Positions 2,513 to 52,777 of a DNA stretch of 53,481 nucleotides are shown piece by piece. This DNA comes from a virus. Its lineage: Duplodnaviria > Caudoviricetes. Under the pieces are notes generated by a model that had not been told where the DNA came from, made no database searches, and worked only from the letters and a program-made list of their open reading frames with translations. A program made the position numbers and the translations under genes. The DNA lies in the IMG/VR virus record IMGVR_UViG_3300026283_000082, positions 1 to 53,481 of that record. One strand, given 5' to 3'. The number at the start of each line of letters is the position of its first letter. Positions within the stretch are counted from its first letter, which is position 1.

Positions 2513-2816
2513 TGCTGGTGGTTCGCGCGGCTTTGTACCGCTCAAGTTCAGGGCGTGGTATGCGCAAAAGTGCGCCTTCTCGCGTGGCGGCAATGAGTCC
2601 TGATTCGATTCGGCGGCGCAGCGTGCGCGTGCTTATGCCAAGGCTGCTTGCGGCCGCGTCAAGCGAAAGGTCGCCTTCGACGCCGCCGTCCCGGCCCGCG
2701 AGCGACACAAGACGCTCAAGACGCAGGGCGAGAGCCTCAAGCCGGTTGATGGTTTCGTCGAGGGCCTGTGGCCCACTTGGGACGCCCTTCGCGTCCCTGT
2801 CTGCTGGGAATGGCAT
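2475..2816 (-). CDS. Excisionase-like HTH protein
   Basis: LSLDAAASSLGISTRTLRRRIESGLIAA..GALLRIPRPELERY fits a MerR/HTH_17 pattern; overlaps the integrase start; preceded by the leader motif. Confidence 0.85.
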   Translation of the reverse strand: MPFPADRDAKGVPSGPQALDETINRLEALALRLERLVSLAGRDGGVEGDLSLDAAASSLGISTRTLRRRIESGLIAATREGALLRIPRPELERYKAARTTSNAHKKNKLKKPS

Positions 2817-2884
2817 TCTTCTGGTATTTGCGCCCTCGGTAAAGGGCTGCGTCGAGATTGAAGCGTCGTCTGTGGCGGGGCCGG

Positions 2885-3247
2885 TCAGAACGCCTTGCCG
2901 CCGTGCTTGTGAGGGCGGCTCTTGTTGTAGGCTATCTTGGCGACAACAGCCTCGGCGATTCGCCAGCCACGGGCGGGGCCCATGTCCATAATGCGGATAA
3001 TCGTGTCCGCCATTTTGGCCTCGGCCCCGGAAAAGGCGGGAATCTTGTCGTCTGGCGGATTGCCCGCGCGGAGCGCCTCCAGAGCCTCTGAAAGCTCGGA
3101 GTGCATAAGCGCGATGATCTCGCCGTCATTTCTTGGCGCGTCCCACCAGCCCTTTTCTCTGGCAGTGTCGTGAACGGCCTGCGACATCTCGCCAAACGCG
3201 GCGATGAAACGCGCGTTTGGCGTTTGGCTCTTCTGATCTTGACTCAC
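2885..3247 (-). CDS. MazG-like nucleotide pyrophosphohydrolase family protein
   Basis: AREKGWW..IALMHSELSEALEALR...ADTIIRIMD...KIAYNKSRPHKHG. Confidence 0.75.
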   Translation of the reverse strand: MSQDQKSQTPNARFIAAFGEMSQAVHDTAREKGWWDAPRNDGEIIALMHSELSEALEALRAGNPPDDKIPAFSGAEAKMADTIIRIMDMGPARGWRIAEAVVAKIAYNKSRPHKHGGKAF

Positions 3248-3259
3248 GGGTACGTGGGT

Positions 3260-3787
3260 TTAGGTGTTTGGCCGACCGGCACCTCCGGGCGGCTTTTGCT
3301 GCCTCTTTCGGGGCATGGTTTCCATGTCAAGCCTTGCCTCCGACGACCCGTCAATGCCGTGGAGCCTGCGCTTTAGCGCATCCCTAACCAGAACGATTTC
3401 CGGGGGAACGCCATCAAGTCCCCTGAGCGCCTCAAGGGATCGGTACGCTGCAAGCATAAGCCCGTCATCGCCGTCTTCGGGGTTGACGCCGAGAGGAGCC
3501 GTCTCGATGCGGCGAATCTCCAAGCGGAGCCATGCCTTTAGCCGCTGAAGCTCGTCCTGCTTGAAGTGCAGGGCCTTGAGCGTCCCGGCTCGCCACTTTC
3601 TCCACTTGACCGCAGAGAGCCTTCTGCCAGTCGGAGTCACCCGATCCGGGTCGGCCAGCATGGCCTCCATGTTCTTGATGTCGAACACGGTTTTGGCGAT
3701 GCGCTCGCGCGCTCGGGCTGCGTCCTTGGGCGGCTGGAAGACAGGGGCGTCCTGTCCAGCCGTGCTGTCTTCTTTTTGTGTGGGCAT
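3260..3787 (-). CDS. Hypothetical phage protein
   Basis: 175-aa ORF in the minus-strand operon with helical composition. Confidence 0.6.
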   Translation of the reverse strand: MPTQKEDSTAGQDAPVFQPPKDAARARERIAKTVFDIKNMEAMLADPDRVTPTGRRLSAVKWRKWRAGTLKALHFKQDELQRLKAWLRLEIRRIETAPLGVNPEDGDDGLMLAAYRSLEALRGLDGVPPEIVLVRDALKRRLHGIDGSSEARLDMETMPRKRQQKPPGGAGRPNT

Positions 3788-3838
3788 CCCATTGGTGGTG
3801 GGCTTTGCGCCCGCTCGGCGCTTTTAGAATATAGCAAC

Positions 3839-5693: not shown

Positions 5694-7288
5694 CTTGGCT
5701 TCCCCTGATAGTAGCCTGCCCCGGTGGCCTTGACCGCCGAGGCAAACCGTCTCTGTAAAGAACCCTCCCGCATAGGAGGACGACATTTTGCGTTGACCTC
5801 TCGCAGCTTCTCCATCGCTACGGCCGTGTTGAGGTCACTTTCTCGCAGCAGGCCGCAGGCCGCAACGAAAAGCAGCTTGTCTCGGCCCACGAACACCCGC
5901 CCCCCGATGGGCGGATGCCACTCCTCGGCCTGAGCGCAACCCTCGTAGGCAGCGGCCATCACTGAGCCGCTGCCATCGCCATCTTCTGAAGCCAATCCGG
6001 GGCGCGATGCCGACTGAGCGCCGTAGGTCGGCATCGCGCCCGGCCGGGAGGCCTCAGCCGCTTCAACCATAACATCCACCAGTTCGTCGCACGGGATTTC
6101 GCGGCGTGGGTCTGGTGGGTCGAACACGCGAAGCTCGCGGCAGTCCTCGATCACATCCCAAACGCCTCTGAAGGCCAAAAAACGCTTCGCTGAGTAGGCA
6201 TTGCAATACAGGCCGCTTTCGTCATGGCGCGATCCGGGCAGTCGCACAGGCTGGTGCGGAAGAAGCACGCATTTGTCTACCTCCTCGCCCCACTCGGTAA
6301 GGAGCTTAGCAAAGAGCGAGAGCACCCGAAGCGCGTGCGCGGGGCTTCTGAAGACCGGCCCCCCGACCATGCCCGATGGCACGCGCACGTGAAAGCCCCG
6401 GCCCCCGGTGTACGACACCACGACGCGGGACAGGTCAGCGCCGTAGAGCCCTATCATTTCCACGATGGTTCGAGCCGAGAAAAAGGCTTCTTCCACGTCC
6501 TGCCCCCGATCCACGTCGAGCGTGATCCAGTTGAAAAGGCATGGGGCTGTATCTCGGCTGTCAAAGTCGCCGCGCTTCCACGCGCCAGAGGAAACGTATC
6601 TCGCCCCAGCCGCGCCGCGCCCAACCACCCTGACCCACGTGAGATAGTCAACCTCGAATCCGGCATCGTGCACGTCGTAGCGCGCAATGCCCCTTGTGTA
6701 GAGAAGCGGGCTTTCTGCCTGAAAGGCCTCACCAAGCGAGTCCACACGGTTGACGTAGGCGTCGGCCTCGGATTCGCCGGACGCCTGAGAAAACCTCGGA
6801 GACTGAAGAGGAATGACAGCCGCAGGCGCGGCTGGTGCCGTAGGACAGGACTCCCCGCCATCAAACCCAAGACGCCACACGCTGCCGCTACGGCCGCTTC
6901 CGACTCCCCGGAGGCGCACAAGCAGGCCGCTACTAAGCAGCGAGTCTACCGACGCGAGCACTCTTCTGTAGAAGGCGTCGAATCCGCTGTCCTGTGGCGA
7001 GGCGAAGTACCAGCGCGCCCAAAGACGGGAGGCGACAGTCTTGGCGCTTAGCACGAACTCACCGTCCTCAAGAACCTCTATCGACTCGCCAATGTCCACC
7101 GTCACGGGGCGTTCGGGGAGGGCAATAGCGGATTTCTGCATCGTCCACACAAAGCCCGAAAGCGCAGCCGCATCTGCTCTTGGGCTCTTTCGTGATCGCG
7201 CCGGAATCCCGCAGGCGACCTGCCTTGGAAGCAGGCAAAAGGCGCTTGGGTCGGCTTCGGCAAGACCGAATCGGTCTACGTGACGCAT
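5690..7288 (-). CDS. Archaeo-eukaryotic-type primase/polymerase
   Basis: ITLDVD (DxD), SYTGGRGFHV (SG.xG.H) and RLPGS motifs, with a PriCT-like C-terminus (NAKCRPPM). Start set at ATG 7288, which carries the leader motif. Confidence 0.8.
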   Translation of the reverse strand: MRHVDRFGLAEADPSAFCLLPRQVACGIPARSRKSPRADAAALSGFVWTMQKSAIALPERPVTVDIGESIEVLEDGEFVLSAKTVASRLWARWYFASPQDSGFDAFYRRVLASVDSLLSSGLLVRLRGVGSGRSGSVWRLGFDGGESCPTAPAAPAAVIPLQSPRFSQASGESEADAYVNRVDSLGEAFQAESPLLYTRGIARYDVHDAGFEVDYLTWVRVVGRGAAGARYVSSGAWKRGDFDSRDTAPCLFNWITLDVDRGQDVEEAFFSARTIVEMIGLYGADLSRVVVSYTGGRGFHVRVPSGMVGGPVFRSPAHALRVLSLFAKLLTEWGEEVDKCVLLPHQPVRLPGSRHDESGLYCNAYSAKRFLAFRGVWDVIEDCRELRVFDPPDPRREIPCDELVDVMVEAAEASRPGAMPTYGAQSASRPGLASEDGDGSGSVMAAAYEGCAQAEEWHPPIGGRVFVGRDKLLFVAACGLLRESDLNTAVAMEKLREVNAKCRPPMREGSLQRRFASAVKATGAGYYQGKPR

Positions 7289-7393
7289 CTTTCTGATAGT
7301 GACGGGCCGCCGGTTAGCGGCCTGTGGTGGATGACAATATAGAAAAGCGGACACCCTGCCCGCTGCCCATTTTGGAGGCGGCCCCTGCCTGCG

Positions 7394-9232
7394 CTACGGC
7401 CTCGAAAGGCTTAGGCCCGCCGATATGAGGTCGCTCGCCACGCCAGAGCTCGTTGCCAGATTCGCGTCGATGCCGAGCCTACGTAGCATTTGGACCTGCC
7501 CCTTGGTGGGACGCCCCCTGCGCCAAGCGGCGTCCTTCCTGACCGCCGCCGCCGCGTCGGGGTGGCGCTGGCGAAGCCCCTCGTCAACCGCCTCAACAGC
7601 CTGCTCAAGCGTGCCGTAGCGGGCCGAGCCGGTCACGCGCTTTTCGCTCAGGTACCGCCCAGCCTCTCTGTCAAAGCGCCGAGGATGTATAGCCTTCACG
7701 CGGAATCCCCCTTCGACATTGTCCGGCTCGACGCGAAGGTGCAGCGAACCGCCCGTGTCGGAAAGGCCGGGAACGTCAAGCTGCCAAGAGCCGTCGCCGA
7801 TGTTGAGCCACGTGTTGCGCGTGCACGCGAGGGAGTGGTGGCTTTTGGCTCTTGCCATAAAATCTATGCGCCGAACCTCGATCTCCACGCCGTCGAGCGA
7901 TAGCGCCGCTTTGATTGCTTCAGCCTTGTCCGGGTTCTGCTCGGACGCCGCCTCGACAACATCAACCACGTCGCGTATGATGCGCTTGCCCTCTGCGCGG
8001 AACTTGGCAGGAAGGCCAAACAGGCTCGGCACCGTGACGATGCCGTCGTAGTCGGCGTCCACAAAATCAAGGACAAGGGCCGCCGGTTTCTTGGAGGACG
8101 CAATAGCGGCAAGTCTTTCTTCGGCTGTCGGAAGGTTGCCGAGATCGCTCGGGATCGTCCGAAGGCCACGTCCGAGCATCTGCTCCATAAGCGGCTTGCT
8201 TTTGGTCGGACGGGCCATCAAAAGACACTCGACACGCCCATCGTAGCCCTCCACCCAGAGCCCGTAGTTGGCGAGCAGGTCGATCTCGCCCGATTCGTGG
8301 GCAAGCAGCATAGCGCGGCGCTCGTTGGCGTCTGTGAGATAGTCGGCGCTGGCCGCTCGTATGCCGTGGCGGCGAGCCTCGTCAGCGAGGTCGTGGGCGT
8401 GGTGCCTGTCGGCGCAAAATGCCATCGCAGACATGAGCGACCCGTCAGGCCTTCGGGCCTCTTTGAGATACGCCTTGATGATGGAGGCGTTTCGCTCTGG
8501 GTTGTTGACCCGTCGTCCGAGTTCGCCGATGGCAAAGTCCCCCATCGAAGTGCCAACACCCTTCAGGCTGGTCTTGGTTGTGATCGAGAGGGGCGTGGGC
8601 TCGCACAGGTACCCCTGCCTCACCATCTTGACCATGCCCATCGAGAAGACGATCTCCGAAAAGAACGCGGACAGGCCCACCTTGTCGTTTCGGTTGGGCG
8701 TGGCCGTAACGCCAACGAGCAGACGGTGCTGCCCGTCCGGCAGCAAGCTCGGGCCGTCCCGGCGAGACCCAAGGCCAAGCGCCGTGAGCACGGTGTCGTA
8801 CTGACTTCCCGGCCTCATGTGGTGCGCCTCATCCACAACGACAATCCCTACGTCCATGTAGGCGAGAAGCCGGGCAAGACGCGGGGATTTTTTTCGGCCG
8901 ATGGTCTGAACGCTCGCCACGACAATGCGGGCCATCGGCGATGCCCTGTGCTCAGCCTTCTCCACCTCGACAAGCACGTTGTCTCCAAGCACCAGCCGCA
9001 TCTTGGCGACCGTTTGCCAGACAAGCTCATCGCGGTGCACGAGCACGAGCACGCCATGCCGGGCAAGCTCGGGGAGCACGGCAGGCAGCGCCGAGAACAC
9101 AATGGTCTTGCCTCCTCCGGTTGCGAGGTGGACAAGAGGATCGTAAACGCCCGAGCGAACCGACGCCGCGACCGAATCGTGACAGGCGTGCTGATAGTCC
9201 CGGAGCACGAGGCCCGGTCGCATCTGAAACAT
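7394..9232 (-). CDS. SF2 DEAD/DEAH-box helicase (phage type)
   Basis: LRDYQ, LATGGGKT, VVDEAHH, TATPNR, EGYD, MARPTKS, QMLGRGLR. Confidence 0.93.
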   Translation of the reverse strand: MFQMRPGLVLRDYQHACHDSVAASVRSGVYDPLVHLATGGGKTIVFSALPAVLPELARHGVLVLVHRDELVWQTVAKMRLVLGDNVLVEVEKAEHRASPMARIVVASVQTIGRKKSPRLARLLAYMDVGIVVVDEAHHMRPGSQYDTVLTALGLGSRRDGPSLLPDGQHRLLVGVTATPNRNDKVGLSAFFSEIVFSMGMVKMVRQGYLCEPTPLSITTKTSLKGVGTSMGDFAIGELGRRVNNPERNASIIKAYLKEARRPDGSLMSAMAFCADRHHAHDLADEARRHGIRAASADYLTDANERRAMLLAHESGEIDLLANYGLWVEGYDGRVECLLMARPTKSKPLMEQMLGRGLRTIPSDLGNLPTAEERLAAIASSKKPAALVLDFVDADYDGIVTVPSLFGLPAKFRAEGKRIIRDVVDVVEAASEQNPDKAEAIKAALSLDGVEIEVRRIDFMARAKSHHSLACTRNTWLNIGDGSWQLDVPGLSDTGGSLHLRVEPDNVEGGFRVKAIHPRRFDREAGRYLSEKRVTGSARYGTLEQAVEAVDEGLRQRHPDAAAAVRKDAAWRRGRPTKGQVQMLRRLGIDANLATSSGVASDLISAGLSLSRP

Positions 9233-9340
9233 GACTCTTCTGGTTGGTCCGGATTTGTCGATCCGGGTGGTTCACCACGCGCCCTGCGGGAAGCGAGGCA
9301 TCGCTTGTTGTAGATTGGGCGCTGTTTTCTCCGGCACGCT

Positions 9341-13253: not shown

Positions 13254-13895
13254 TCAGAACGGGAGGTCGTCCGCGCCCTCCTCCTCTTGCACGCCCGTGG
13301 CCGCCTGCGCCCCAAATGCGGGAGGCCCGGCGGGTAGGGCTTCAGGTGCGTCGGTGGCGAGTTCGGAGGGCGCGCGGGGCGGCTCGGCGGTGTTCACGCG
13401 GATGCGCGCCTTGGTGTAGCGCGAAGCCGTAACACCGTCCTTCTTGCCCGCCGCCTCCTCGGCATCCGCCTTGGAGGGCCATAGGTTGCGCGACCATGCT
13501 CCGGTGGACCACTCAAGGTCTACCGAGTGGTTGGACATGGCCGAGAAGCGAAGCGGCGGCTCTTGCACGAACTGGGCGGCGAAAGCTTCCCACGAGGGCA
13601 GGTCGCTCTTCCACTGAAAACCCGACGCCTCGGCAAGGCGCTGAAGGTCGCCGCTGCTGCGCTGGGAGTTTTCGGGGTTCAGGCCCCACATAAACGTCGC
13701 CGTGGCCCTGCCTCCGGCGTGCTCGCCCGTGTCGGCGCGGCACTGGAACTCGACAATGTGAAGGCTCTTACCCTCAACGTACTTGTATTCGTGGCCCACG
13801 ATGGAGAAGTCAAAGACCGTACGGTCGGGCAAGACCTTGCGCTCGGTGGGCTGAGAGGCGGCAACGGCCGCGTAGGATGGGAGAGACGGAAGCAT
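13254..13895 (-). CDS. SSB-like protein (DUF669-type)
   Basis: Acidic C-terminal tail ending DDLPF; located with Gp157 and the AAA ATPase. Confidence 0.7.
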   Translation of the reverse strand: MLPSLPSYAAVAASQPTERKVLPDRTVFDFSIVGHEYKYVEGKSLHIVEFQCRADTGEHAGGRATATFMWGLNPENSQRSSGDLQRLAEASGFQWKSDLPSWEAFAAQFVQEPPLRFSAMSNHSVDLEWSTGAWSRNLWPSKADAEEAAGKKDGVTASRYTKARIRVNTAEPPRAPSELATDAPEALPAGPPAFGAQAATGVQEEEGADDLPF

Positions 13896-13966
13896 GGGCT
13901 TCTGGTAGGGTTGTCGCCCGTGGTTGCGGGCGGTGGTAAGGGGCCGCTCATGGCGGCTTGGTTTCG

Positions 13967-15242: not shown

Positions 15243-15631
15243 TAGACCGGGTGGTGAAAGATGGATGCCTGATCTCCGGTGGACTGCACGATCTGTGCGA
15301 TCCTGTCGGCTCCGGGGGCGGCCTCTCGGCAGGCGAAGAAGCCCTTGAGGTCGCTCTCGCGCTCCATCAAAAGCCGCGCGTAGTAGGGGCGCAGGTTGTT
15401 GTTGAGCTTGAAGGCGTCGCCGCGCGTGGAGACGGCGTGGTCGTACCGGACGATCTCAAAGAGCCCGCCAATCGAGTAGCGGCGAATACCGTGACTCTTT
15501 GCGCGGCGGGCGAGGCGGGCAAGCTCGTCGTAGACGTGCGGGTTAGCTCGGTGGAAGGCCACGAACCGCTCGATCAGCGTTGGCGATGGCGTCGAGACTG
15601 GTGGCGGCGAGGCGGCTTCGTTCGATTGCAT
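15242..15631 (-). CDS. Conserved phage hypothetical protein
   Basis: FVAFHRANPHVY...FKLNNNLRPYYARLLM; leader motif present. Confidence 0.75.
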   Translation of the reverse strand: MQSNEAASPPPVSTPSPTLIERFVAFHRANPHVYDELARLARRAKSHGIRRYSIGGLFEIVRYDHAVSTRGDAFKLNNNLRPYYARLLMERESDLKGFFACREAAPGADRIAQIVQSTGDQASIFHHPV

Positions 15632-15666
15632 CTTCTGGTGGGTATTGGCCCCGGTAAGGGCCGTGC

Positions 15667-15777
15667 TTAGGACAGCGCGGCAAGCGACGCTGCAATGAAG
15701 GCGAGGGCGCTAAACGCCAGCGCAAGGCACTGGTCTTTGCTCAGCGGCGACGGCGGCGGAGCGCGGTAGGTCTTCAT
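15667..15777 (-). CDS. 36-aa membrane peptide (not in ORF track)
   Basis: MKTYRAPPPSPLSKDQCLALAFSALAFIAASLAALS, preceded by the full leader motif. Confidence 0.55.
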   Translation of the reverse strand: MKTYRAPPPSPLSKDQCLALAFSALAFIAASLAALS

Positions 15778-15859
15778 GGCTCTTCTGGTTTTTTTCCTCT
15801 ACCGGGTAAGGCGAGGTTGGTGGCGGAGTGGCGATGTGAGCGGCCGCAGGGGTGGACTA

Positions 15860-17082: not shown

Positions 17083-17622
17083 TCAGCCTCCCCGCGTGCC
17101 GCCATTCTCTTTGGCCTCGGCGATGACAACGAGTTGTTTGACAATGCCAAAGAAGGCGCTTCTTTGACTGGCGGCTTCGGCGCTGGTGCGCTTCACGCCT
17201 TGATCCGCGCCCATCTTTTCCGCGAGATCGCCGAGGTGATGCCCGTAGTAATCGGCGAACAGTCGCCTGAACGCCTTGTGGTCAAACGGCACCATTTCTG
17301 CGAGGTCGATGGCAGTCGGCGCGATGTCCTGCTCGTCGTAGCCAAGCAGCCGAAGCCCCTCGGCGTTCTGGTGGATACGCCAAGCAGGCTGGACGCTTTG
17401 CGGGAGGCGCGCCAGCGCAAGATGGCTGGCGCGCGCAACCATTCGGTGCGGCGCGTCCACCACTGCGCAGATGCTTGCGGCGCTTTGCGTGGGCGCGAGG
17501 GCGGTGAGTGAGAGGTCGTTCCACTCAGGGCCAAGGCGCTGCCTCGATACGACGACCACGAAGTGGGCGGATCGAAGAACGGCATAGGCCGCCCGGAGGC
17601 GGCTTAGAAAGCCTGCGGTCAT
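17083..17622 (-). CDS. Hypothetical protein
   Basis: 179-aa ORF with its own promoter and leader motif. Confidence 0.65.
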   Translation of the reverse strand: MTAGFLSRLRAAYAVLRSAHFVVVVSRQRLGPEWNDLSLTALAPTQSAASICAVVDAPHRMVARASHLALARLPQSVQPAWRIHQNAEGLRLLGYDEQDIAPTAIDLAEMVPFDHKAFRRLFADYYGHHLGDLAEKMGADQGVKRTSAEAASQRSAFFGIVKQLVVIAEAKENGGTRGG

Positions 17623-17690
17623 GCTCTTCTGATGTATTGGGCCACAGGTGGCGGGGCCCGGTGGTGGGCCTGCGGTGACAGGCGTATGGC

Positions 17691-18373: not shown

Positions 18374-18868
18374 TTAGTTGCGACTGGCCCGCTCGGGTGA
18401 TGTCTGGGCGTTCTGCAAAAGACCTGCTATGCGACTCCTTATGAGTAGGCAGATACGCCCATAAAACACACGAGACAAGTTTGCCTTGCGGTAGGCGTCT
18501 GGCGTCGTGGCGCGTAGGATGCGTGAGTACGCCCACGTGGCGTGCTGCTCGGCGTAGGCGGGGCTGGATCGGTAGCGGCTCATTGCCCCCTCTACCCCCT
18601 GCCCCGCCAGCGGGAGCGCCTGCGCTTCAAGCGGGCCGTAGTCGGACAAGCACGTGCGGCACATAAGGGTTCGGGCCTCGTGCTCGCTCGGTGCGGGCAC
18701 TTGGTGGCCGGGATAGGACGTGCAGGGCATCAGGCGAATGAGCGCCGGAGCCTCGCCCTCGGCTTCGAGGCATCGAGGGCATCCGTAGGCGGACTCCTGA
18801 TCGGGCGAGGCGGCCTCGTCGTCGTAGCGCCCGTCGTCAAGGTCGCGGCTGGGGTCTGTGAATGGCAT
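18374..18868 (-). CDS. Hypothetical protein with two CxxC motifs
   Basis: CPRC...CRTC; TCAGAAGAc ATG leader. Confidence 0.65.
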   Translation of the reverse strand: MPFTDPSRDLDDGRYDDEAASPDQESAYGCPRCLEAEGEAPALIRLMPCTSYPGHQVPAPSEHEARTLMCRTCLSDYGPLEAQALPLAGQGVEGAMSRYRSSPAYAEQHATWAYSRILRATTPDAYRKANLSRVFYGRICLLIRSRIAGLLQNAQTSPERASRN

Positions 18869-19033
18869 GTCTTCTGATGATGGCTACTCGCAGCGAAAGT
18901 GAGTCGTAGTGATACACTATTGCGTTGATAGAACCCGCATGTTCCGAATCCTCCCTAATAAGTATTAGCACATTAGGGGTGTTAGCGTGTGTGTGCGTGC
19001 GCGCCTGCGCATATGGAATGCGCACGCTTCCTA

Positions 19034-19522
19034 CTACATGGCGCGTAGGGCTTCGAGTCTAAGCATTGCCTCGTGGTAGAGGCCCTTGGCCGTCTTAGTC
19101 GCCGCTGCGCCGCGCCCGGCTTTGGCAATGGCGCGCTCGTGGCGCTGGCGCATCTCGCCAACGCGGACAATGGCCGCTGCCTCTGTTTCGCCTGTAGCAG
19201 TCACGCCAAGCGGCAGAATCATCTGCGCCCAGCGCCACGAAAGCCCGGTGATGGGGAAAAACACGCGACCTGTCGTGCCCGCCACCGGCCAGTGGGCAAG
19301 CGCATCGACGGTGCCGTGCGCCGTAAGGGTCTGGTCTTTCTCCGCAATCTCCACGAGATCAAGCCCCGCCAGATCGGCGAAGTTTTCCAGCGTGGGCTTT
19401 AGCATCGTGATGCAGCCGGTCGTCCGGTTTGACCCGCCGCCGAGATTCCGGATAAGCTGCTCCGTCGCCTCGTCGAAAAATGGCGGCTTGGGGGATAGGG
19501 TGACGCGAACATCTCTGGTCAT
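19034..19522 (-). CDS. Hypothetical protein
   Basis: 162-aa ORF with the full leader motif. Confidence 0.65.
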   Translation of the reverse strand: MTRDVRVTLSPKPPFFDEATEQLIRNLGGGSNRTTGCITMLKPTLENFADLAGLDLVEIAEKDQTLTAHGTVDALAHWPVAGTTGRVFFPITGLSWRWAQMILPLGVTATGETEAAAIVRVGEMRQRHERAIAKAGRGAAATKTAKGLYHEAMLRLEALRAM

Positions 19523-19705
19523 CTTCTTGTGGTTTTGCAGCCCGGTGTGGCTGGTGTTCGTGATTTCTTTACCTCAAGAGGCCACCATTGGGCCTGTATG
19601 GGGCTTCTGCGGGCATTCTATGACCCGTCAGAGGCAAGGTTAGGCTTTGCCGCAAATCTGCCCAAGCGGCCGCTCCTTAGCACTTTCTAAAGAGACGGGC
19701 TTGGC

Positions 19706-22266: not shown

Positions 22267-22394
22267 GGCTCTTCTGGTGGTTTTGGCCCCGCTCCTCTCG
22301 GTCAAGAGGAGGGTGGTGGTGGGGCGGGGCTAAGGCGAACCCTTAGCCTTTGGTGGAACATCGGTCCCCGTGGTGACGGGGGGTGTGATGACGC

Positions 22395-22550
22395 TCACGG
22401 CGTGGTGTAGGAGGCTCCCCACACGCGCCCGTACTCGACGCGGTAGTGCGGCTGCCCCCTTGCGGGGCAGTAGACGACCGAGACCGGGCGGTGCTGGAGC
22501 GCGGCGAGTCGATTGGCGGCGCTCACGGCGAAGCGAAACGAGTTGAACAT
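22395..22550 (-). CDS. 51-aa protein (not in ORF track)
   Basis: MFNSFRFAVSAANRLAALQHRPVSVVYCPARGQPHYRVEYGRVWGASYTTP, preceded by the full leader motif. Confidence 0.6.
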   Translation of the reverse strand: MFNSFRFAVSAANRLAALQHRPVSVVYCPARGQPHYRVEYGRVWGASYTTP

Positions 22551-22699
22551 GGCTCTTCTGAGTAAAGCCCGTTGTGGCGGGCGGTGGTAGAAGCAGGAAG
22601 CGGCGGGCGACCCCCGGCGTGGGGACTCGGCCTATGTGGCCTCGCTTGGCGCAGAGGCCCGACAGGGCCGATCCGGGGGCGGCCCGCCACAGCGTTTGG

Positions 22700-34063: not shown

Positions 34064-34122
34064 CTTTCCTCAACGCCTCCCAAAGGCCCGCCTGACCCGG
34101 CGGATCAAAACCAGAAGATACC

Positions 34123-34533
34123 ATGCCCCGCACCGCGACCAAGGTGATTTCCGCTCCGTACTTCCTTGCGGACGAGTTCTCTGCCACGCCCTCGTTTGGC
34201 GGAAACATTGACTGGGACGCCGTTCCGGACATCGCGGACTACAAGGACGAGGATGGCAACAAGATTCTGCCCTCGGGCACGATCCTGAAGCGTTGCGCCG
34301 ACGAGACGCTCGTTCCGCACGACTCCGTGAAGGTGGGCAACGTCGAGGGCCTGCTCCGCTACGCTACGGGCGAGAAGGCGCGCGCCCACGCCAAGACGGG
34401 GGTGGGCGTGGTCATTGGGGGCGTGGTCTACGAAGAGCTTGTCCCCGGCCTCACGCCCACGCTCAAGGACGAACTCGTCGCAAACGGCGTCGGCTGGCAC
34501 TTCCGGACTTACCAGAACAGCTTGACCGCCTAA
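34123..34533 (+). CDS. Head decoration protein
   Basis: 136 aa, between the protease and capsid genes; GNKILPSGT...GLL...G.V. Confidence 0.7.
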   Translation: MPRTATKVISAPYFLADEFSATPSFGGNIDWDAVPDIADYKDEDGNKILPSGTILKRCADETLVPHDSVKVGNVEGLLRYATGEKARAHAKTGVGVVIGGVVYEELVPGLTPTLKDELVANGVGWHFRTYQNSLTA

Positions 34534-34598
34534 GCCGCAGCTTTTAGGCGACACCAACAACACCTCCGCCTGACCCGGCGGCGACCATCAGAAGACTC

Positions 34599-35726
34599 AT
34601 GGACCTCTCGCTTCAGCCCGTCCTCGACCTCATCAACCGCGATGGCGGGGCGATGCGCATTGCCAACTCGACCCGCACGCCGAGCTCGTACTTCCTTGAG
34701 ACGCTGCTGCCCGAGCGCGGCGTGTCTTCGTACCGCGTGGACCGCTCCAAGATGATCGTGCGCTCCACGATGGCCGGTCTCGTCCCGATGGACACGTTCT
34801 ACCCGAAGGGGGGCGTGGTCGAAGTTGGCGGCATGAACGAGGACACGGCCAAGATCGCCATCGAGCAGACCTTTGGTGAGTCGCAGCTTCGCACGCTTCA
34901 GGACACGCTCTTGCGCCTCGGAAACTCCAGCATGTCCACCGAGCGGATGCTTCAGGAGTTTCTGAACTGGTACGACAAGATCATCCTCCAAGGCATCTAC
35001 GACTTCGAGGAGTACCTGCGCGGCCAAGCCCTCACTCGCGGGCAAATCAACATCCAACAAAACGGAACGTCGCTATCCGTGGACTACGGCATTCCTGCCG
35101 AGCGAATGCCCAGCACGTCCACGGTTGCCTCCGGCGCGGCGTGGCACCTGCCGGGCTCCGATCTCTGGACGAAGTTCCGCTCTGTGCGGCCACTGCTTCG
35201 TGGCGGGGTTACGAGCATCACGATGAACTCGGCGACGTACTACGCGGCCGAGGAGAACCCGGAGAACCGCCTCAAGGTGCTGTCCGAAGGCGACGGCTAC
35301 GTCGAGGTTGTCCGCTACGATGCCCGCGACGCAGGCAACGTCAACTCGGACGATAAGCGCGAGCGCCTGCGCATTCGCCTCTACGACGACGAGGCCGAGA
35401 GCCTGCGCCCGGACGGTACGACGGTGCGCCACAAGTTCGTGGAGGACGGGGCGGTCATCATCACCGGACGCCCGCAGCGCCGGGGCTACTACGTCGGACA
35501 GGGCTCGACCGACGACCCGGACAACGAACTGGCCCTTGGCTACACCCATATCGCGCCGACCACGGAAGGCACGAACGAAGGCAACCCCGGCCCCGGCCGG
35601 TGGGGCGAGATCGGGACGGTTCCGGGCCGCGCCTACCAGCTTCGCGGCGCGGGCGTGAGCAACATGCTCCCGGTGATCGAGAACCCCGAAGCCCTTGTCG
35701 TGCTCCGCACCGAACTCCCGTCCTAA
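34599..35726 (+). CDS. Major capsid protein (lambda E-like)
   Basis: 375 aa; EEYLRGQALTRGQI...VDYGIP signature; position in the head operon. Confidence 0.85.
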   Translation: MDLSLQPVLDLINRDGGAMRIANSTRTPSSYFLETLLPERGVSSYRVDRSKMIVRSTMAGLVPMDTFYPKGGVVEVGGMNEDTAKIAIEQTFGESQLRTLQDTLLRLGNSSMSTERMLQEFLNWYDKIILQGIYDFEEYLRGQALTRGQINIQQNGTSLSVDYGIPAERMPSTSTVASGAAWHLPGSDLWTKFRSVRPLLRGGVTSITMNSATYYAAEENPENRLKVLSEGDGYVEVVRYDARDAGNVNSDDKRERLRIRLYDDEAESLRPDGTTVRHKFVEDGAVIITGRPQRRGYYVGQGSTDDPDNELALGYTHIAPTTEGTNEGNPGPGRWGEIGTVPGRAYQLRGAGVSNMLPVIENPEALVVLRTELPS

Positions 35727-37208: not shown

Positions 37209-37314
37209 CACGCTGGGGCCGAGGCCTCGCCGCGCGGTAGTGGCGTCCCGCCGCGCCCGTGCTTACCTTCCTCTCACCGCCCTGCTAACCGGCAGCGCCT
37301 CTTTCCACCAGAAG

Positions 37315-37695
37315 ATGCCCCTTCCCGCAAAGAACACCTACGAGATTCAGGGCCACACGTTTGTGCTGGCCCCGACCACGCCCAAGCGCCGCGACGCGCT
37401 TGATGCGCTCATCAAGGCCAAAGACGAAGAGCAGCGCGACTTTGTCGCCGCTGTTTCGGCCGCCGAGTCGGCGGGTGTGTCTTGGGTGAGTCGCCTTGAT
37501 CTTTTGCCCGACCCACCGGACGAGTACCGCTTCTACTTCGACGTTTTTTGCGCCGTGACGGACGGGCCGCATGAAAAGCTGGTTTTCGAGGACTTTGACA
37601 CCAAGGCCGGAGAGGTGGCCCTTCAGGATTTTTTGCCCACGCAGAAGCTGACCGAGCTAAGGCTGATCGGCTTTTTGCCCTTCCCAGTTCAGTAG
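37315..37695 (+). CDS. Tail assembly chaperone (G-like)
   Basis: Upstream of the tape measure gene; start 37315 set by the leader motif; slippery heptamer near the 3' end. Confidence 0.7.
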   Translation: MPLPAKNTYEIQGHTFVLAPTTPKRRDALDALIKAKDEEQRDFVAAVSAAESAGVSWVSRLDLLPDPPDEYRFYFDVFCAVTDGPHEKLVFEDFDTKAGEVALQDFLPTQKLTELRLIGFLPFPVQ

Positions 37696-42184: not shown

Positions 42185-42210
42185 TAGCCGCGCCGCCTCG
42201 CCACCAGAAG

Positions 42211-45200
42211 ATGATCCTGCTTGCCAAGACATACCGTCTTGACCCCGACGCCGCAACCGGCATCTTCGGGTCGCTGACCATCGAGCAAGTCCCCCTGCTC
42301 GATGTGGTGTCGGTGAGTCCTGTCAAGCGGGCCATCGAGACGGGCGCTGGCGTGTACCGATACGACAGCGTGACGCTCTCGTGCGTGGGCTTGCCGGACG
42401 GCTTCTTTGCACTGCACCAGTACGACGACGCCGCCGAAGTCGTGGACGAGCGTTATCCGTTCGTGGCCGAGGTTCAGTACGGGGACTACTGGGACGACCC
42501 CGGCGGCAAGTGCGTCTTCTACGGGGCACTTCGCGCCGACAGCGTGCGCGAGGACAAGGGCGTGACGACCTTCACGGTCGCCTCATTCGACGCCCTGCTG
42601 GCCGATCTTCCGCCAGTCAAAAGCAGGCCGAGCTACACGTCCTTTGCCAACTACTCGGCGGCCTTTGTAGATACGTTTTCGCTCCGCCCTGATAACCTGC
42701 CTACGGGATTCAGCGCCGTGGTGGGGCGATTCTATGCGAGGATCGCCAACATTGAAGGGCTGCCAGTAGATCACGAGAGGAGCATATGGGCCGTTCTTCG
42801 GGAGGGGTCGGTTCTTTCATGGCAGGCGACCTATCCCTCCGGCGGCACCTCCGACCATCGCCTTGTTGTGTCTCGTGCGGTGCCCGAAGGAACGTTCAAC
42901 AATGCGCTTGTTGAGTGCTTCATGTCTGATTCGGGCCTTTATCTCTCAAAAGGGCCTGTAAATACAAATCAGATTTCGCAGTGGGACGTAATCCGCCCGC
43001 TCTCCCCGAGCCAGCACGACAACACCTACGGCAACTTAGTTATCAAGGTTGCCGCACTTGAGCAGCCCATTCAGAAATATGTCGGGGGAATCTGCCGCTT
43101 TCGACCGCCGGGGTCAGACGTGCACCGTGGGGCCGTTAGGATAGAGAAGGCCGAATATTACAAATACAAGAAGGACGGGAAGGACTTTGTGGACTACGAG
43201 TGGGTGAAAATGTCGGTTATACCGGCAGTTGGCACGCTGCTCCCTGAGTTTGCAATCACGCACGGCGTGAAGGGGGCGCTGGAGTTCATTGACCCTATAC
43301 AGATGCCAACGGGCACTGAGGTCACGGTTCTCTCGCCCTCTATGTATGGGACGGGCGACCCCTACGACGCTTCCAGCCCAAACTACTCGGCCCGAGATGT
43401 TGTCAGGGGCATTATCGCTTCGCATCCGGCCCTGTCCACCTTGATTCCCGACGATGCTGCCACGGCCGTGTCTGTGCGCGGCATGCTTCGCTATATTTCG
43501 CGCCTAATCTCGCTTTCGAGCAAGCCCGCCGAGGCCCTGTCGCAAGTGCAGACCGCATCGGATGCCCTTCTTTGGATCACAGGTGCTACAGAGGCCACGG
43601 GGGCGGCCTCGCGTCTTGCCGGAGGTGCCCGCCGGATTCACACACACCTGCTCTCCCGCGATGAGGCGGCCTCGATGCCAGCCATCACTCTGCCGACACC
43701 TGTCGAGGCTGGAGGGGAGGCCGTGGGCGTGCGCCCTCGTTATGTTGTGATCAAAAGCCCAACGCGCTATAACGAGGTTTCGCTCAATATCCCCGGCACG
43801 ACCAAGATTGTGCGCCGCAAAAAGCGGTTTCTGTTCTGGGAATACGGAGAGACTGGCCCCGGCTTGGGCGTGAAGCAAACACCCGGTGTGGTGTATGACA
43901 CCTACATTGGCTGGTACCCGACCGTAGATGGACTCGGCAACGACATCATACCGCCAGAGCTCGACCAGAACGAAAAGGGCGCTCTGGAGGGAGCCATCGA
44001 GGTGTCGGCGATAGCCGCGCTCCCCGATGGAAGTGGCGATGTCTACACGAGCGGCGACCGCGTGGTACCCAATGACGCGACGTTGCAAACATTGGCGGAG
44101 CGGTATTGGAACCTGTATGGGCGATATTGGAGGCGCTTTACCGTAAAAGTCCTCGGCATTTACGATAGCGTCGAGGATGGTGTGGACGTGCCGTTGCATT
44201 ACGTTGGCGCGAAGGTGCGGTGCGTGACTGGACTGGGCGATCTTGGCAATCAGGTATGGGTCGAGGGTGTTATTCTTTCGTCCGAGGTGGATTATGCTGG
44301 CGGCACGACGACGTTCGTGCTGGCGGCCGAAGGCGCAGAAGACCAGCCTTTGGGGCCGGGCCTCAACCTCCCTCCAATCGCCCGCCTGCTCGCTCCCACT
44401 GTGATTGCCTCTAATCTACCGGCAGGGGCCAGTGGCGATCTTCGAGCCCTCGTTGTGCTGGATGCGAGTGGTAGCATTGATCCAAACGGCGATGCACTCT
44501 CCTTTGAGTGGCGCGTCAACGGTGTTATCGCAGAGGGAGAGGTTACGCCTGTTGTGGAAGTTGTCATCGAGGACGAGGCGGAGGTCAGCGTCAAGGTCGT
44601 AGATGGTGGAGGTCTATTTGCGTCGAAGTCGGCTATTGTCAAGGTCGTGGAGCCTGCCGAGGATGGCCCTCTTGACGTTTCTCATGCGCCCGTGCTTGAC
44701 GTTTCGCTTTCGGGCGAGTCTAATACCCTGACAGCATTTGTGCGCTTAGAGGGGTACAAGATCGCCTCTGACGTGCGGGTGGAGTATTACGAGGTGAGGT
44801 CGGGGTCGGCCACGAGTGTGACGACCTTGACGCATGACACCTTGGTAGATGAGGTGATCGAGGTAGATCGCCCTGAACCCGGACGCATCGTCAACTTCTT
44901 TGCCCGCGCTGTCGATGCGACGCGGGGTATCGTGGGTGAGTGGCGCACGCTCGCGGTCGGCCGCAATCCCGCAGCCGAAATCACTCAGGCTTCAGCCATT
45001 GTGGACGGCCCTTCGTCGGTGCGCGTGACGTGGCGTGGTGACACCGACACGGCGTCTGTGCGCCTTGAACTGTACCGCCACGCTGCCGGAACGTCCCTGC
45101 CCGGATTGCCTACGGCCACGCAGATGGGCGCGGCAACAGGTACGGCGACGATTCCGCTTGGCGGCTCTACGCTCTCAGCCTCCGAGGTCGTAGATGTTCG

Positions 45201-50466: not shown

Positions 50467-50467
50467 G

Positions 50468-52060
50468 ATGCCTGTCGCCGCCCTTCTGGACGATCCAGCC
50501 ACCTACAACCCTGCTGCTTCGGGCACCTTGGCCGGGCACGCTTGGGATATGGAGCAGTGGTTTCTCGCCTCCGCCCCCGGCGAGGGGTGGACGGTGCAGA
50601 TTTATGACCGATCTGGAGGCGACAGCCAAGCCCTGAGTGAGGCCCTCGCAGACGGGCGAAAGATCATCTTTGGCGGATTCAGTCCTCACAACCTCGTATC
50701 CCGCGCAGAAAACATCGCTGCGACGGGGGCCGTGCTGGTGGGGTGTATTGGAAATGGCTACGACGAGACGTTCGATATCACGCGCTTCGTCTGGCCCATT
50801 CTCGTGACAACCGTAGGCACAGCGTCAGCGGGAAACCGCTACACCAGTTACTCGACGGGTGTGTGGTGCTGCACCGAGACGTCCGACCTCTCTGTTCTGG
50901 CTCAGTCGTTTGGCGCAGCCGCCCGTGCGGCCATCCTCACGCGCTACCCAGAGAGCGCGGCCAACCCGCAAGCGGCGCTCATTCGGATGCTGGCTGGGGA
51001 AGTGCCGGTGGCGGGCGCGGCGCGGTGGACGAAGCAGGAGGGATTCGGCGTGACACGCACGTTCCTGCCGTCGTTCACCGCCGCCGCCGACCCCGCCGAG
51101 CACGCGCTGGTGCTCGGGTCGGCGGCCAACTACTCGACCGCGCCGGGCACGTCTACAGCCACGATCGCGGGTGGGCGTAGATTCGCGGGCACGGCACGAT
51201 CCGGCCTGTGCGCCTACTCCACCTACACGCTGCCGCCCAATGCTCAGGGAGCGGGCATCTCGGCGGTGATCGAAGCGGACGCTGTGAACCACGGCGCGTA
51301 CCCCGTGCTGATCTGCTCGAATCGTGGCGATGCTCAGCAGGTGCATCCCGGCCAGACGGTGCGGGTGTCGCTGGCCTACGAGAGCCGCGCCGAGGCAACG
51401 ACAGTTTCGCTACGCATCGAGGACGTGGAAAACCGCACGTTCGATGTGAGCCTGTCGAACGCCACGATGCGCGACATTCGGCCATTCGTACTGGTCGTGC
51501 CCCCTCTGCCCTCTGTTGACGGTGCGCTCTCGCCCGTGCTCACTGTGACGCCGACGGCCACACCCGGCAAAATGGTAGCGTCGTGGGTGCGCCTTGGCGG
51601 GCAGGCGGTGAACGTGCGCCTAGCGGGTGTGGTGGCGGGGACCACGACGGCTACCTCGATGCCTCTGTATGTGGGAGGCGACGAGCAACAGGTTGACGTG
51701 GTAGCGGTGCTACCCGGTGGCAGGACGACTGCGCCGCACCCGCGCTCCGTTGTCGTATTGGACGAGAGCGTCGGCTACGTCCCGCCCCCGCCGACGTTGG
51801 AGGTTCAGCGCAGCGGCGGGACGCTTTTCGTCACCGCCGAGGCCGAGGGCGCTGTCGCGTACATCGTCACCGCCGAGGCCGGAGCCGAGCCTACAACGAC
51901 GGTTGAAGGCGGGGAGGTCGCGTGGCCGCCGCATCGCCCTGCTCGCGTGGTCGCTCTGGCAAGCGGCGCAGGAGGCAACTCGGACGCCACAACCCTGCTT
52001 GTTCCTGCACAGAGGGCCTTGCCGGTTTCGGGTGTTCACCCGCGTGCGGTTTTGGGATAG
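50468..52060 (+). CDS. Virion-region protein with a degenerate subtilase-like N-terminal domain and beta-sandwich C-terminus
   Basis: GAVLVGCIGNG...ILVTTVG...TSYSTG...AQSFGAAARAA...EGFG; start ATG 50468. Confidence 0.55.
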   Translation: MPVAALLDDPATYNPAASGTLAGHAWDMEQWFLASAPGEGWTVQIYDRSGGDSQALSEALADGRKIIFGGFSPHNLVSRAENIAATGAVLVGCIGNGYDETFDITRFVWPILVTTVGTASAGNRYTSYSTGVWCCTETSDLSVLAQSFGAAARAAILTRYPESAANPQAALIRMLAGEVPVAGAARWTKQEGFGVTRTFLPSFTAAADPAEHALVLGSAANYSTAPGTSTATIAGGRRFAGTARSGLCAYSTYTLPPNAQGAGISAVIEADAVNHGAYPVLICSNRGDAQQVHPGQTVRVSLAYESRAEATTVSLRIEDVENRTFDVSLSNATMRDIRPFVLVVPPLPSVDGALSPVLTVTPTATPGKMVASWVRLGGQAVNVRLAGVVAGTTTATSMPLYVGGDEQQVDVVAVLPGGRTTAPHPRSVVVLDESVGYVPPPPTLEVQRSGGTLFVTAEAEGAVAYIVTAEAGAEPTTTVEGGEVAWPPHRPARVVALASGAGGNSDATTLLVPAQRALPVSGVHPRAVLG

Positions 52061-52068
52061 TGACGTCG

Positions 52069-52101
52069 TTTGTGGCGCAAAGCGACTTGTGTGGGTATCT
52101 T
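52069..52101 (+). promoter_or_regulatory. Putative late promoter (lysis operon)
   Basis: TTTGTGG-N20 (spacer begins CGC)-TATCTT, followed by the leader hairpin at 52108-52121. Confidence 0.6.
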
Positions 52102-52141
52102 GCCCCACCTGTCACCGCAGGCGAAGCAAACACGTCAGAAG

Positions 52142-52777
52142 ATGCCAAAGCCTATTGCATGGGCCCCGACAGAGGCGCAGCTACTTGCCGCCTATGCCAC
52201 CCAGAAGTACCCTCTGTTTGGAGGGAGCGCCGCGAGGCCGCGACCCTACGACATCAACCTGTTTGGTATTCGGAAAGAGACGAACGCCAAGCCCGGCACC
52301 TACGACGACGTGCTTGGCTACACGCTTCGTCTCGACAACGGGCGGCGTATCACGCGCTTCTTTCCGGGCACAACCGATCCCGGCCTCCCGGAACTGCTGA
52401 AGCCGACCAACAAGTCAGGCGTGGCGGTTGTCAAGCCGGGGCATTATCCGGGCCTGTGGGAGCTGGGTCTCCACAAGAGGAAGACTCCGGCGCTTGTGCA
52501 GGTAGCCCCCATCGTTGTCTACCGCGACAACAACAAGGACGGAAAGGCCGACACGAAGGGCATGAAGGAACAGCGGGGGCTGTTTGGTATCAACATGCAC
52601 CCCGAGTCGGTCTACCGAGAGGAGAACGTGATCGGTCTTTGGAGTGCGGGATGTCAAGTGCCTTACCACAACGCCGACATGGACGAGCTTCTTCGCGTCT
52701 GCCGAGAGCAGGTTCGACGTGGCTGGGGTAGGCGTTTTTCGTACACCCTATTCACCGAAAGCGAGGTCATTCAATGA
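52142..52777 (+). CDS. Putative endolysin, L,D-transpeptidase (YkuD)-like Cys enzyme
   Basis: TTDPG, VYRDNNKDG, GINMH-x14-SAGCQV (H-x14-S-x-G-C); lysis-region position; start 52142 set by the leader motif. Confidence 0.65.
   Translation: MPKPIAWAPTEAQLLAAYATQKYPLFGGSAARPRPYDINLFGIRKETNAKPGTYDDVLGYTLRLDNGRRITRFFPGTTDPGLPELLKPTNKSGVAVVKPGHYPGLWELGLHKRKTPALVQVAPIVVYRDNNKDGKADTKGMKEQRGLFGINMHPESVYREENVIGLWSAGCQVPYHNADMDELLRVCREQVRRGWGRRFSYTLFTESEVIQ

Follow-up and report, generated by a model that had tools for sequence, protein, structure and literature searches.

A composite leader motif was found directly in front of the start codons of early and late genes in the window, by which we mean the whole 53,481-base stretch of the IMG/VR provirus record IMGVR_UViG_3300026283_000082 (63% GC). 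The motif, here called the cassette, comprises a short hairpin with a six-nucleotide loop, an A/C-rich linker and a purine-rich box that ends 0–6 nucleotides (nt) before ATG; 19 genes carried hairpin and box, and four carried the box alone. The motif was real and far beyond chance. We favor, with about even confidence, the reading that it would be an RNA-level, start-associated leader for cistrons that are not coupled to the preceding gene, serving translation initiation and perhaps message stability.

Occurrence and Enrichment of the Cassette

An earlier note, made from the letters of the window, had listed these sites and described an element that is oriented with the gene, keeps its pairing while the stem sequences differ, covers early and late genes and should be enriched over shuffled sequence. 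This description was borne out. All 19 hairpins, with their loops, boxes and ATGs, were present as described and in the orientation of their genes, and so were all four solitary boxes, in front of 18868, 25231, 26755 and 42211. Every site lay in gene sense (23/23), and the genes concerned were of the lysogeny-side, replication, packaging, head and lysis-side groups. A strict regular expression, requiring a stem of at least 4 bp, the hexaloop NNRCMN, the box, an ATG within 7 nt and an open reading frame (ORF) of at least 40 amino acids (aa), marked 18 distinct starts, compared with a mean of 0.71 and a maximum of 6 in 200 dinucleotide shuffles. The 19th leader (15777) escaped this expression on account of its bulged stem. 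The same word emerged from an unbiased count over ORFs of at least 60 aa, where CAGAAG was the top 6-mer within 14 nt upstream of the first ATG (16 occurrences, 0.63 expected). The total counts were 44 for CAGAAG (25 expected) and 24 for CAAGAAG (5.5 expected).

A covariance model of hairpin, linker and box, from which the ATG was left out, was built up in two steps: seven rows in MAFFT register gave a first model, and 13 rows realigned to it served as seed of the final model (R2). An alignment of all leaders by MAFFT was discarded, as its hairpins were out of register. In the window, R2 gave 17 matches at E < 0.01, including four that were not among its seeds (22266, 34599, 31110, and 17622). 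All 17 were in gene sense and ended 0–6 nt before the ATG of the gene. Beyond this cut, the next matches included 26755 and 15777.

Structure of the Cassette

The stems were 4–8 bp long, and 16 of the 19 hairpins had distinct sequences. One 16-nt hairpin was identical in three leaders, and three others shared a 14-nt core, which extended to 16 nt in two of them. In the 13-row alignment, both sides had changed in all five stem pairs; 96.9% of the paired cells were complementary, compared with 57.6% in shuffles, and none of the 500 shuffles reached the observed value. When the partner column was slid, pairing fell to 32–47%. The rows had been picked for having hairpins and the alignment had been fitted to the structure, and what the count shows is that pairing was kept across differing sequences, not that the hairpins could be discovered blindly.

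The loop, conserved and not symmetric, followed the pattern (T/C)-N-(A/G)-C-(C/A)-N; position 4 was C in all 19 cases, and position 3 was always A or G. In nine of the 19 "hexaloops" the outer nucleotides could form a U.G pair, which would leave an NACC tetraloop. The consensus of the box was A-Y-C-A-G-A-A-G-(A), ~9 nt and longer than in the earlier description. The stretch from hairpin to ATG was rich in A (41%, against 18% for the genome) and C (32%), the rest being 18% G and 9% T; with this composition behind the hairpins, the U run of an intrinsic terminator was not found. The distance from hairpin to box was 7–16 nt and once 37 nt, and that from box to ATG was 0–6 nt, with no gap at all in eight of the 19 hairpin leaders and in 11 of all 23 sites. 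The hairpin lay 15–21 nt from the ATG in 17 of 19 leaders. The two partial distances were negatively correlated (rho −0.49, p = 0.04, n = 18, with the outlier 17622 dropped), which is a weak hint that the distance between hairpin and ATG is the constrained quantity. The long linker of the 17622 leader contained a second small hairpin.

Position Relative to Gene Junctions and Promoter-like Sites

Three types of gene junction were distinguished by our gene calls: overlapping stop and start codons, TAA followed by an A/C-rich spacer of 12–15 nt, and long gaps. The cassette was found at 21 of the 31 genes with an upstream gap of at least 59 nt, and it was absent from all 21 genes whose gap did not exceed 24 nt; two further cassettes stood in intermediate gaps, one of 26 nt and the other of about 35 nt. 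The hairpin of the 15631 leader begins 4 nt past the stop codon of an upstream 36-aa ORF. At the second type of junction, TAA plus 12–21 nt of nearly pure A/C (for example CCTAACCCCCAACGACG-ATG) was observed before 3247, 4270, 10733, 10904, 12317, 18360, 36078, and 49978, and its wording was near-identical at 10733 and 10904. The start regions of the phage genes were predicted to be more open than random places (0.57 vs. 0.41, p = 6e-6).

A promoter-like pattern of the Bacteroidota type, TTTG-N23-TAHHTT, occurred four times (0.28 expected), each time in sense orientation and just upstream of a leader, so the hairpin would be transcribed. The four sites had an extended upstream word in common (TTTGTGGCGC, TTTGTGGG, or TTTGGTGCGC), and all stood ahead of packaging, head or lysis-side genes. 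They may be late promoters of the phage, perhaps needing a phage activator. In Flavobacterium, transcription has been reported to start 4–5 nt after the −7 element (PMC6847099). By analogy, the hairpins of the 25811, 31110, and 52142 leaders are predicted to lie within a few nt of the transcript 5′ end, and that of 31538 ~27 nt downstream of it. Looser −7-like words were found upstream of the leaders of 7288, 17622, and 23355, among them a TATATTG 12 nt upstream of the 7288 hairpin and another 6 nt upstream of the 17622 hairpin.

Relation to Shine-Dalgarno and Host Signals

The box resembles a Shine-Dalgarno (SD) site in being a conserved purine-rich word upstream of starts. However, an SD site is spaced ~5–10 nt from the start codon and is complementary to the 3′ end of 16S rRNA, whereas the box stood 0–6 nt from ATG, too close for an SD site as the earlier note had argued, and the 16S rRNA of three relatives contained nothing complementary to it. 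Neither CTTCTG nor TCTTCT occurred anywhere in these three 16S sequences, whose 3′ end reads GGATCACCTCC(T/A)AAAGAG, and the box was rejected as a 16S partner for want of a complementary 6-mer. The phage genes that lacked the cassette had A/C-rich leaders, likewise free of SD sites. According to one survey, Rhodothermus and Salinibacter show neither SD sites nor the A-rich logo of other Bacteroidetes (PMC3155529).

Both ends of the window were host DNA, with a ParA gene at 1–1395(−) and a PAS-domain gene from 52774(+). The best matches of the ParA flank were genomes of Rhodothermales (83% identity to the closest, followed by Rubricoccaceae, Rhodothermaceae, and Salinibacteraceae), and the host of the prophage was therefore taken to be a Rhodothermales bacterium. 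The earlier statement that host parA lacks the motif was correct, although it rests on only two host genes in the window. In 151 Rhodothermales genomes, R2 gave a total of 14 matches at a per-genome E ≤ 0.1, approximately the number expected by chance and none of them clustered; 47 first-look candidates were scored per genome, and weak matches may be lost in such a scan. The best score in these genomes was 27.2 bits, whereas the window held 13 matches of 27.7 bits or more. The element was thus phage-specific among the genomes searched, as had been proposed. In 1.34 Mb of DNA around ParA in relatives, the regular expression matched 20 times (~0.8 per 53 kb, vs. 18 in the window), and none of these matches was leader-like, except possibly one in a locus of a Salinivenus metagenome-assembled genome. 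There, on the minus strand near 1957, GCCGG-TCACCG-CCGGC was followed by ACGACGAGAAAG-ATG, which may be due to chance or to a prophage remnant. Calling starts in the host loci by first ATG was too crude to yield a logo; C-rich words appeared, and GGAGG was not enriched.

That the cassette is the host's own general initiation signal, visible here through the dense packing of phage genes, could draw on the 10-mer CCAGAAGATG, which in some of the 285 genomes examined outnumbered its reversed control 5–10-fold (25 vs. 2 in one of them, G001). Nevertheless, 14 of the 25 sites in G001 were inspected, and none was gene-start-like or had a leader hairpin; mostly a short open frame followed the ATG, and a host-wide box was rejected. 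The excess would be explained by the antisense of the common codons ATC-TTC-TGG. With the chance-level R2 matches, the low density of the regular expression in relatives and two window host genes without the cassette also standing against it, we consider this explanation extremely unlikely, and the element is not a host signal among the relatives searched.

Relatives and Database Searches

Sampling of this lineage is poor, and only one informative relative was found, a 5-kb metagenome contig (L104) that encodes a portal homologue of 49% identity. Upstream of its portal gene, a −7-like word was followed by a 6-bp hairpin with a different stem and the loop TGATCC (TGACCC in the portal leader of the window), an A/C-rich stretch and TCAGAAAG. 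R2 scored this region at 12.6 bits and by another pairing. The conservation of the cassette in L104 thus appears partial, and it is a single case. The portal protein otherwise matched distant Mu-type portals only, in viral contigs and in 401 genomes of the phylum, and the portal protein of the window is recorded on a 271,642-base contig. The Sak4-like protein had no close relative in the genome contigs or viral contigs searched, and among isolated phages the head protein found only a 31% match, in a Lysinibacillus phage.

A search of IMG/VR for the shared 16-nt hairpin plus box gave no match. The looser pattern ACCG-N12-24-CCAGAAGATG matched at least 118 stretches there; 80 loci were listed with a single match each, and there was no convincing repeated leader among the matches listed. 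No family in Rfam matched the cassette, and at E ≤ 1 the window gave only the tRNA and one sub-threshold match overlying it. A literature search for Rhodothermales or Salinibacter viruses returned nothing on this element. DNA near-identical to the window was observed in sequencing runs (X1–X16) labelled wastewater or activated sludge in several studies, and among contigs of four DNA runs compared with window 13500–33499, those of X9 and X10 included some ~90–95% identical to parts of the phage, which showed that a population of close relatives exists and might supply orthologous leaders.

Proposed Function and Alternative Explanations

The reading of the cassette as an RNA-level leader element is suggested by its position, its orientation, its covariation and the promoter-like sites upstream. 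Its action in translation initiation we infer from its position; likewise, we infer its transcription as part of the leader, its effect on translation or stability and the identity of its reader. In the proposed mechanism, the cassette would be a cis-acting 5′ leader on phage mRNAs, used wherever the gap between genes is long. Its main job would be to start translation on cistrons without translational coupling, on host ribosomes that do not use SD pairing. The hairpin, with its (Y)NACC(G) loop, would both mark and insulate the 5′ edge of an open region for initiation, and it may bind a factor or dock on the platform of the 30S subunit; the linker contains little G or U and would avoid self-pairing; and the purine box AYCAGAAGA would be a single-stranded contact adjoining the start codon. 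At three of the four late-promoter-like sites, where the promoter would stand immediately before the leader, the hairpin is expected at the transcript 5′ end or within a few nt of it, and would there also protect the mRNA from 5′-end decay. A bolder version is that the hairpin is a stand-in for the SD duplex, with the helix of the NACC loop docking on an SD-blind 30S platform 15–21 nt upstream of AUG and AYCAGAAGA lying in the exit channel, as a private start signal orthogonal to the host; this we consider quite unlikely.

Several observations weigh against the leader reading. Genes that carry the cassette and genes that lack it had the same predicted openness at the start (0.57 in both groups; p = 0.83); an open start thus does not depend on the cassette, which was rejected as its cause. 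The conserved loop and the 9-nt box exceed the information that a generic open leader needs, which suggests that something reads them specifically, be it the 30S subunit or a protein. The negative correlation of the two distances was weak and hinges on the omission of the 17622 outlier. In L104, the hairpin stood 56 nt and the box 13 nt from ATG, and its loop had T where all 19 loops of the window have C, while a prophage in another genome (G072), whose head protein is 38% identical, had neither the motif nor another start-associated word. The 151 genomes searched did not include the chromosome of the host itself, and none of the sequencing runs listed with window-like DNA was an RNA run.

Alternatively, one dedicated RNA-binding protein of phage or host may bind the loop, the box or both, as a translational repressor or activator of all marked cistrons or as an antiterminator that loads onto RNA polymerase, as lambda N does with boxB, and the cassettes would then form a true regulon. 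This is possible, though somewhat unlikely. The NACC core of the loop was conserved while the stems varied, the box has a consensus of ~9 nt, the element was phage-specific among the genomes searched, and motif genes no more open than others imply that structure alone is insufficient; all of this would suit such a protein. Approximately 50 phage proteins were scanned with Pfam or PHROGs (early genes with both, a smaller late set with one or the other), and no RNA-binding, antiterminator, sigma, nuclease or RNA-polymerase family scored above threshold, which is weak evidence because most of them are ORFans (orphan ORFs). The only hints were the HTH proteins and, in the gene ahead of the terminase, a weak stretch resembling sigma region 4. 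The use of the cassette by early, late and lysogeny-side genes alike would also be odd for a temporal switch. N-type antitermination systems have few sites per genome, and few are all they need, which speaks against the antiterminator form. The earlier note had proposed a translation-initiation or RNA-binding-protein regulon: the phage-specific, oriented, early-and-late and non-SD nature of the element held, while the scans lent no RNA-binding family to the second half of the proposal. The word regulon implies regulation, and a cassette for constitutive expression would account no less well for sites on both early and late genes.

Two further explanations place the function of the motif in processing or in DNA. 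As a processing or stability element, the cassette would be cut by an endonuclease near the box or upstream of the hairpin, so that the hairpin caps the 5′ end or a near-leaderless mRNA results. Hairpins in the intercistronic gaps of long operons (e.g., 34123, 34599, 13895, and 15631) are consistent with this, as is the predicted place of the hairpin at or near the transcript 5′ end at three of the four promoter-like sites, and with the box 0–6 nt from AUG, cleavage within it would leave an mRNA almost without a leader. However, the variable distance from hairpin to box misfits a ruler-type nuclease and the ORFs scanned yielded no nuclease family, and we regard processing as unlikely. An element acting in DNA could be an oriented protein site, comparable to the stoperators of cluster A mycobacteriophages or to the ESAS inverted repeats discussed below; it could be a hairpin promoter recognized by a phage RNA polymerase; or it could serve to shuffle gene cassettes as a recombination linker, like the promoter early stem-loop (PeSL) elements of T4-type phages. 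Repeated oriented intergenic motifs have elsewhere been read as DNA sites (PMC3203893; PMC7302621), a promoter, a stem-loop and a start region come together in PeSL cassettes (PMC2839356), and the identical hairpins or cores in two sets of three leaders could reflect copying. Against this, the stem sequence varied with pairing kept at all five positions, which a sequence-specific DNA binder would not tolerate; the spacing of the parts is too variable for a rigid promoter; the host-type promoter-like sites were upstream, not downstream, of the hairpins; and the library scans of phage proteins detected no RNA polymerase gene. We therefore consider a DNA-level element highly unlikely.

Gene Map of the Prophage and Neighboring Elements

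The coordinates of the genes, leaders and promoter-like sites are given in Table 1. The prophage holds many ORFans besides the genes with family matches, and Mu gp36/gp37-like genes and a head protease were also present. The gene ahead of the large terminase is probably the small terminase. The gene at 23355 is the first leftward gene of a divergent region (23356–23514), and the last phage gene (52142) had a weak PHROG match to endolysin. The 36-aa ORF at 15667–15777(−), MKTYRAPPPSPLSKDQCLALAFSALAFIAASLAALS, carries a full cassette of its own, and its hydrophobic tail suggests a small membrane protein.

Between the 22266 leader and the extra TCACCA hairpin upstream of it, a strong stem-loop unlike the leader hairpins, GGCTAAGG-GTTCG-CCTTAGCC, was observed at 22316–22365(−), and this could be a terminator or another RNA element. 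In the window part 12617–12760(−), CCAGAAAG stood 12 nt ahead of ATG 12617 with a stemless TTTACCG before it. Upstream of the 12617 start, a hairpin with the loop CGACCA preceded CCGGAGA, which stood 7 nt ahead of a 28-aa ORF; no other SD-like start context was noticed in the phage. The anticodon TCT of the tRNA-Arg at 12951–13028(−) reads AGA, and the box contains AGAAGA; no link was seen between the two because the box is not in a constant frame with ATG (gaps 0–6).

Table 1. Genes, leader cassettes, box-only sites and promoter-like sites in the window.
Feature	Position	Strand	Description
Integrase gene	1397-2593	-	
HTH_17 (excisionase-like) gene	2475-2816	-	
Helicase gene	7394-9232	-	
tRNA-Arg(TCT)	12951-13028	-	
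Sak4-like gene	15860-16864	-	
Large terminase gene	26755-28623	+	
Portal gene	29764-31110	-	
Major head protein gene	34599-35726	+	
Tape-measure-size gene	37925-42184	+	
HTH_17 (excisionase-like) gene leader	2814..2847	-	hairpin GCCCT-TTACCG-AGGGC, linker, box ACCAGAAGA, ATG 2816; 34.8 bits
532-aa ORFan leader	7286..7322	-	loop TAACCG, box ATCAGAAAG, ATG 7288; 32.7 bits
Helicase leader	9230..9266	-	loop CGACAA, box ACCAGAAGA, ATG 9232; weak for R2, 11 bits
Leader	13893..13932	-	loop CAACCA, box ACCAGAAG, ATG 13895; 34.3 bits
Leader	15629..15662	-	loop TTACCG, box ACCAGAAG, ATG 15631; 37.5 bits
36-aa ORF leader	15775..15816	-	bulged stem, loop TTACCC, box ACCAGAAGA, ATG 15777; 16.1 bits
Long-linker leader	17620..17683	-	loop TCACCG, box ATCAGAAGA, ATG 17622; 20 and 15 bits
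Leader	19520..19553	-	loop ACACCG, box ACAAGAAG, ATG 19522; 32.2 bits
Leader, non-seed of R2	22264..22311	-	7-bp stem, loop TGACCG, box ACCAGAAGA, ATG 22266; 27.7 bits
Extra hairpin without box	22366..22381	-	CCCCG-TCACCA-CGGGG, loop of the leader type; intergenic, upstream of 22266 leader; 15.2 bits
51-aa ORF leader	22548..22582	-	loop CCACAA, box CTCAGAAGA, ATG 22550; 23.5 bits
Leader	23353..23386	-	loop TCACCG, box ACCAGAAG, ATG 23355; 40.1 bits
59-aa ORF leader	25490..25525	-	loop CAGCCA, box ACAAGAAG, ATG 25492; 28.1 bits
Leader of 283-aa gene before large terminase	25776..25813	+	loop TCACCT, box ACAAGAAG, ATG 25811; 28.6 bits
Portal leader, non-seed of R2	31108..31147	-	loop TGACCC, box ACGAGAAGA, ATG 31110; 20.6 bits
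Mu gp36-like gene leader	31502..31540	+	loop TTGCCG, box ATCAGAAGA, ATG 31538; 32.3 bits
Leader within head operon	34088..34125	+	loop TGACCC, box ACCAGAAGA, ATG 34123; 31.2 bits
Major head protein leader, non-seed of R2	34566..34601	+	loop TGACCC, box ATCAGAAGA, ATG 34599; 24.2 bits
Leader	37282..37317	+	4-bp stem, loop TAACCG, box ACCAGAAG, ATG 37315; 28.8 bits
Last phage gene leader	52108..52144	+	4-bp stem, loop TCACCG, box GTCAGAAG, ATG 52142; 28.5 bits
Box only	18866..18877	-	ATCAGAAGAC, ATG 18868; no clear hexaloop hairpin; 10.4 bits
Box only	25229..25239	-	ACCAGAAG, ATG 25231; 12.3 bits
Box only, large terminase	26742..26757	+	ACCAGAAGACGAC, ATG 26755; 16.8 bits
Box only, 1954-aa gene after tape-measure gene	42202..42213	+	ACCAGAAG, ATG 42211; 13.8 bits
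Promoter-like site	25734..25768	+	TTTG-N23-TACCTTTA; 25811 hairpin begins 7 nt after
Promoter-like site	31157..31190	-	TTTG-N23-TATCTTG; portal-leader (31110) hairpin begins 9 nt after
Promoter-like site	31436..31469	+	TTTG-N23-TATCTTG; 31538 hairpin begins 32 nt after
Promoter-like site	52069..52102	+	TTTG-N23-TATCTTG; 52142 hairpin begins 5 nt after

Significance and Comparison with Known Systems

How bacteria without SD pairing choose their start codons is still an open question, and the prophage offers a compact case. For Rhodothermales, no start-selection signal has been reported so far (PMC3155529), and start-associated repeats of phages have been reported since 2011 without a mechanism (PMC3203893; PMC12699233). 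With ~23 natural variants in one genome, the cassette lends itself readily to mutational tests. Should it drive translation, a phage with its own initiation code would be exemplified here, and the cassette would offer a portable expression part for high-GC relatives in the Bacteroidota. If the hairpin indeed stood in for the SD duplex, bacterial initiation elements would gain a new class.

Some known RNA elements share single features with the cassette. The 5′-terminal stabilizer hairpins of bacterial mRNAs of the ompA type are stem-loops at or near the transcript 5′ end that need no conserved loop. The hairpins of the 25811, 31110, and 52142 leaders, predicted to be close to the 5′ end, resemble them; however, the cassettes have a conserved loop, and most of them are inside operons with no promoter-like site nearby. 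The nut sites of lambda-type phages combine a linear boxA with a boxB hairpin in the nascent transcript, and each genome has only a few of them, placed without regard to start codons. The cassette is likewise a small RNA hairpin of conserved loop plus a linear box, but it is start-tied and present in many copies, and the scans found no N-like or Q-like protein in the phage.

The PeSL elements of T4-type phages are also repeated composite cassettes of promoter, stem-loop and start in front of many genes, mostly ORFans (PMC2839356). According to the same source, their stem-loops are terminators within or around sigma-70 promoters and their starts have SD sites, whereas the hairpin here was downstream of the promoter-like site, was followed by A/C-rich sequence (9% T), had a conserved loop and came without an SD site. 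Promoter-like sites were found upstream of four leaders, with looser ones upstream of about three more. In Bacteroidia, Kozak-like adenines have been reported at −3, −6, −12, and −13 (PMC6847099). These resemble the cassette in that initiation is tuned without SD sites by A-rich unpaired sequence near AUG, and in the same broad phylum. They are, however, single fixed positions of low information, whereas the cassette has a floating 9-nt word plus a hairpin, with A at −3 when the gap is 0 or 1; moreover, the Bacteroidetes logo was reported to be missing from Rhodothermus and Salinibacter (PMC3155529).

The earlier note did not recognize the cassette as a described element. For the sequence this stands, as Rfam held no match, but elements of this kind are in print for actinobacteriophages (PMC3203893; PMC7302621). 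The nearest described kind is the SAS, or start-associated sequences, along with their extended counterparts (ESAS), of these phages. In cluster K mycobacteriophages, SAS are 13-bp asymmetric repeats, 11–19 per genome, in one orientation and 3–7 bp before mostly ATG starts; they are reported to be absent from the host genome, and about half of them have an inverted repeat (ESAS) just upstream (PMC3203893). Their function was still called unverified in 2025 (PMC12699233). In cluster EG Microbacterium phages, an 18-bp inverted repeat lies 14–22 bp before start codons (PMC7302621), a spacing close to the 15–21 nt between hairpin and ATG here.

The cassette shares with SAS the asymmetric repeat in one orientation near starts, here with 23 sites and the box 0–6 nt before ATG, but the two diverge in several respects. 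The SAS consensus GGGATAGGAGCCC holds the SD core AGGAG, whereas the box AYCAGAAGA has no GGAG and no 16S complement. The ESAS are 17-bp imperfect inverted repeats of conserved sequence, and neither their departures from the consensus nor those of the sequence-conserved EG repeats support RNA pairing; the stems of the cassette, by contrast, varied and covaried with pairing kept, and it was the loop that was conserved. The SAS are confined to non-structural genes, whereas the cassette was also found on the portal, major head protein, large terminase and head-operon genes, and the hosts of SAS phages belong to a phylum different from that of Rhodothermales. The cassette differs from SAS and ESAS, then, in its covarying RNA hairpin, its box without an SD core and its use on both early and late genes.

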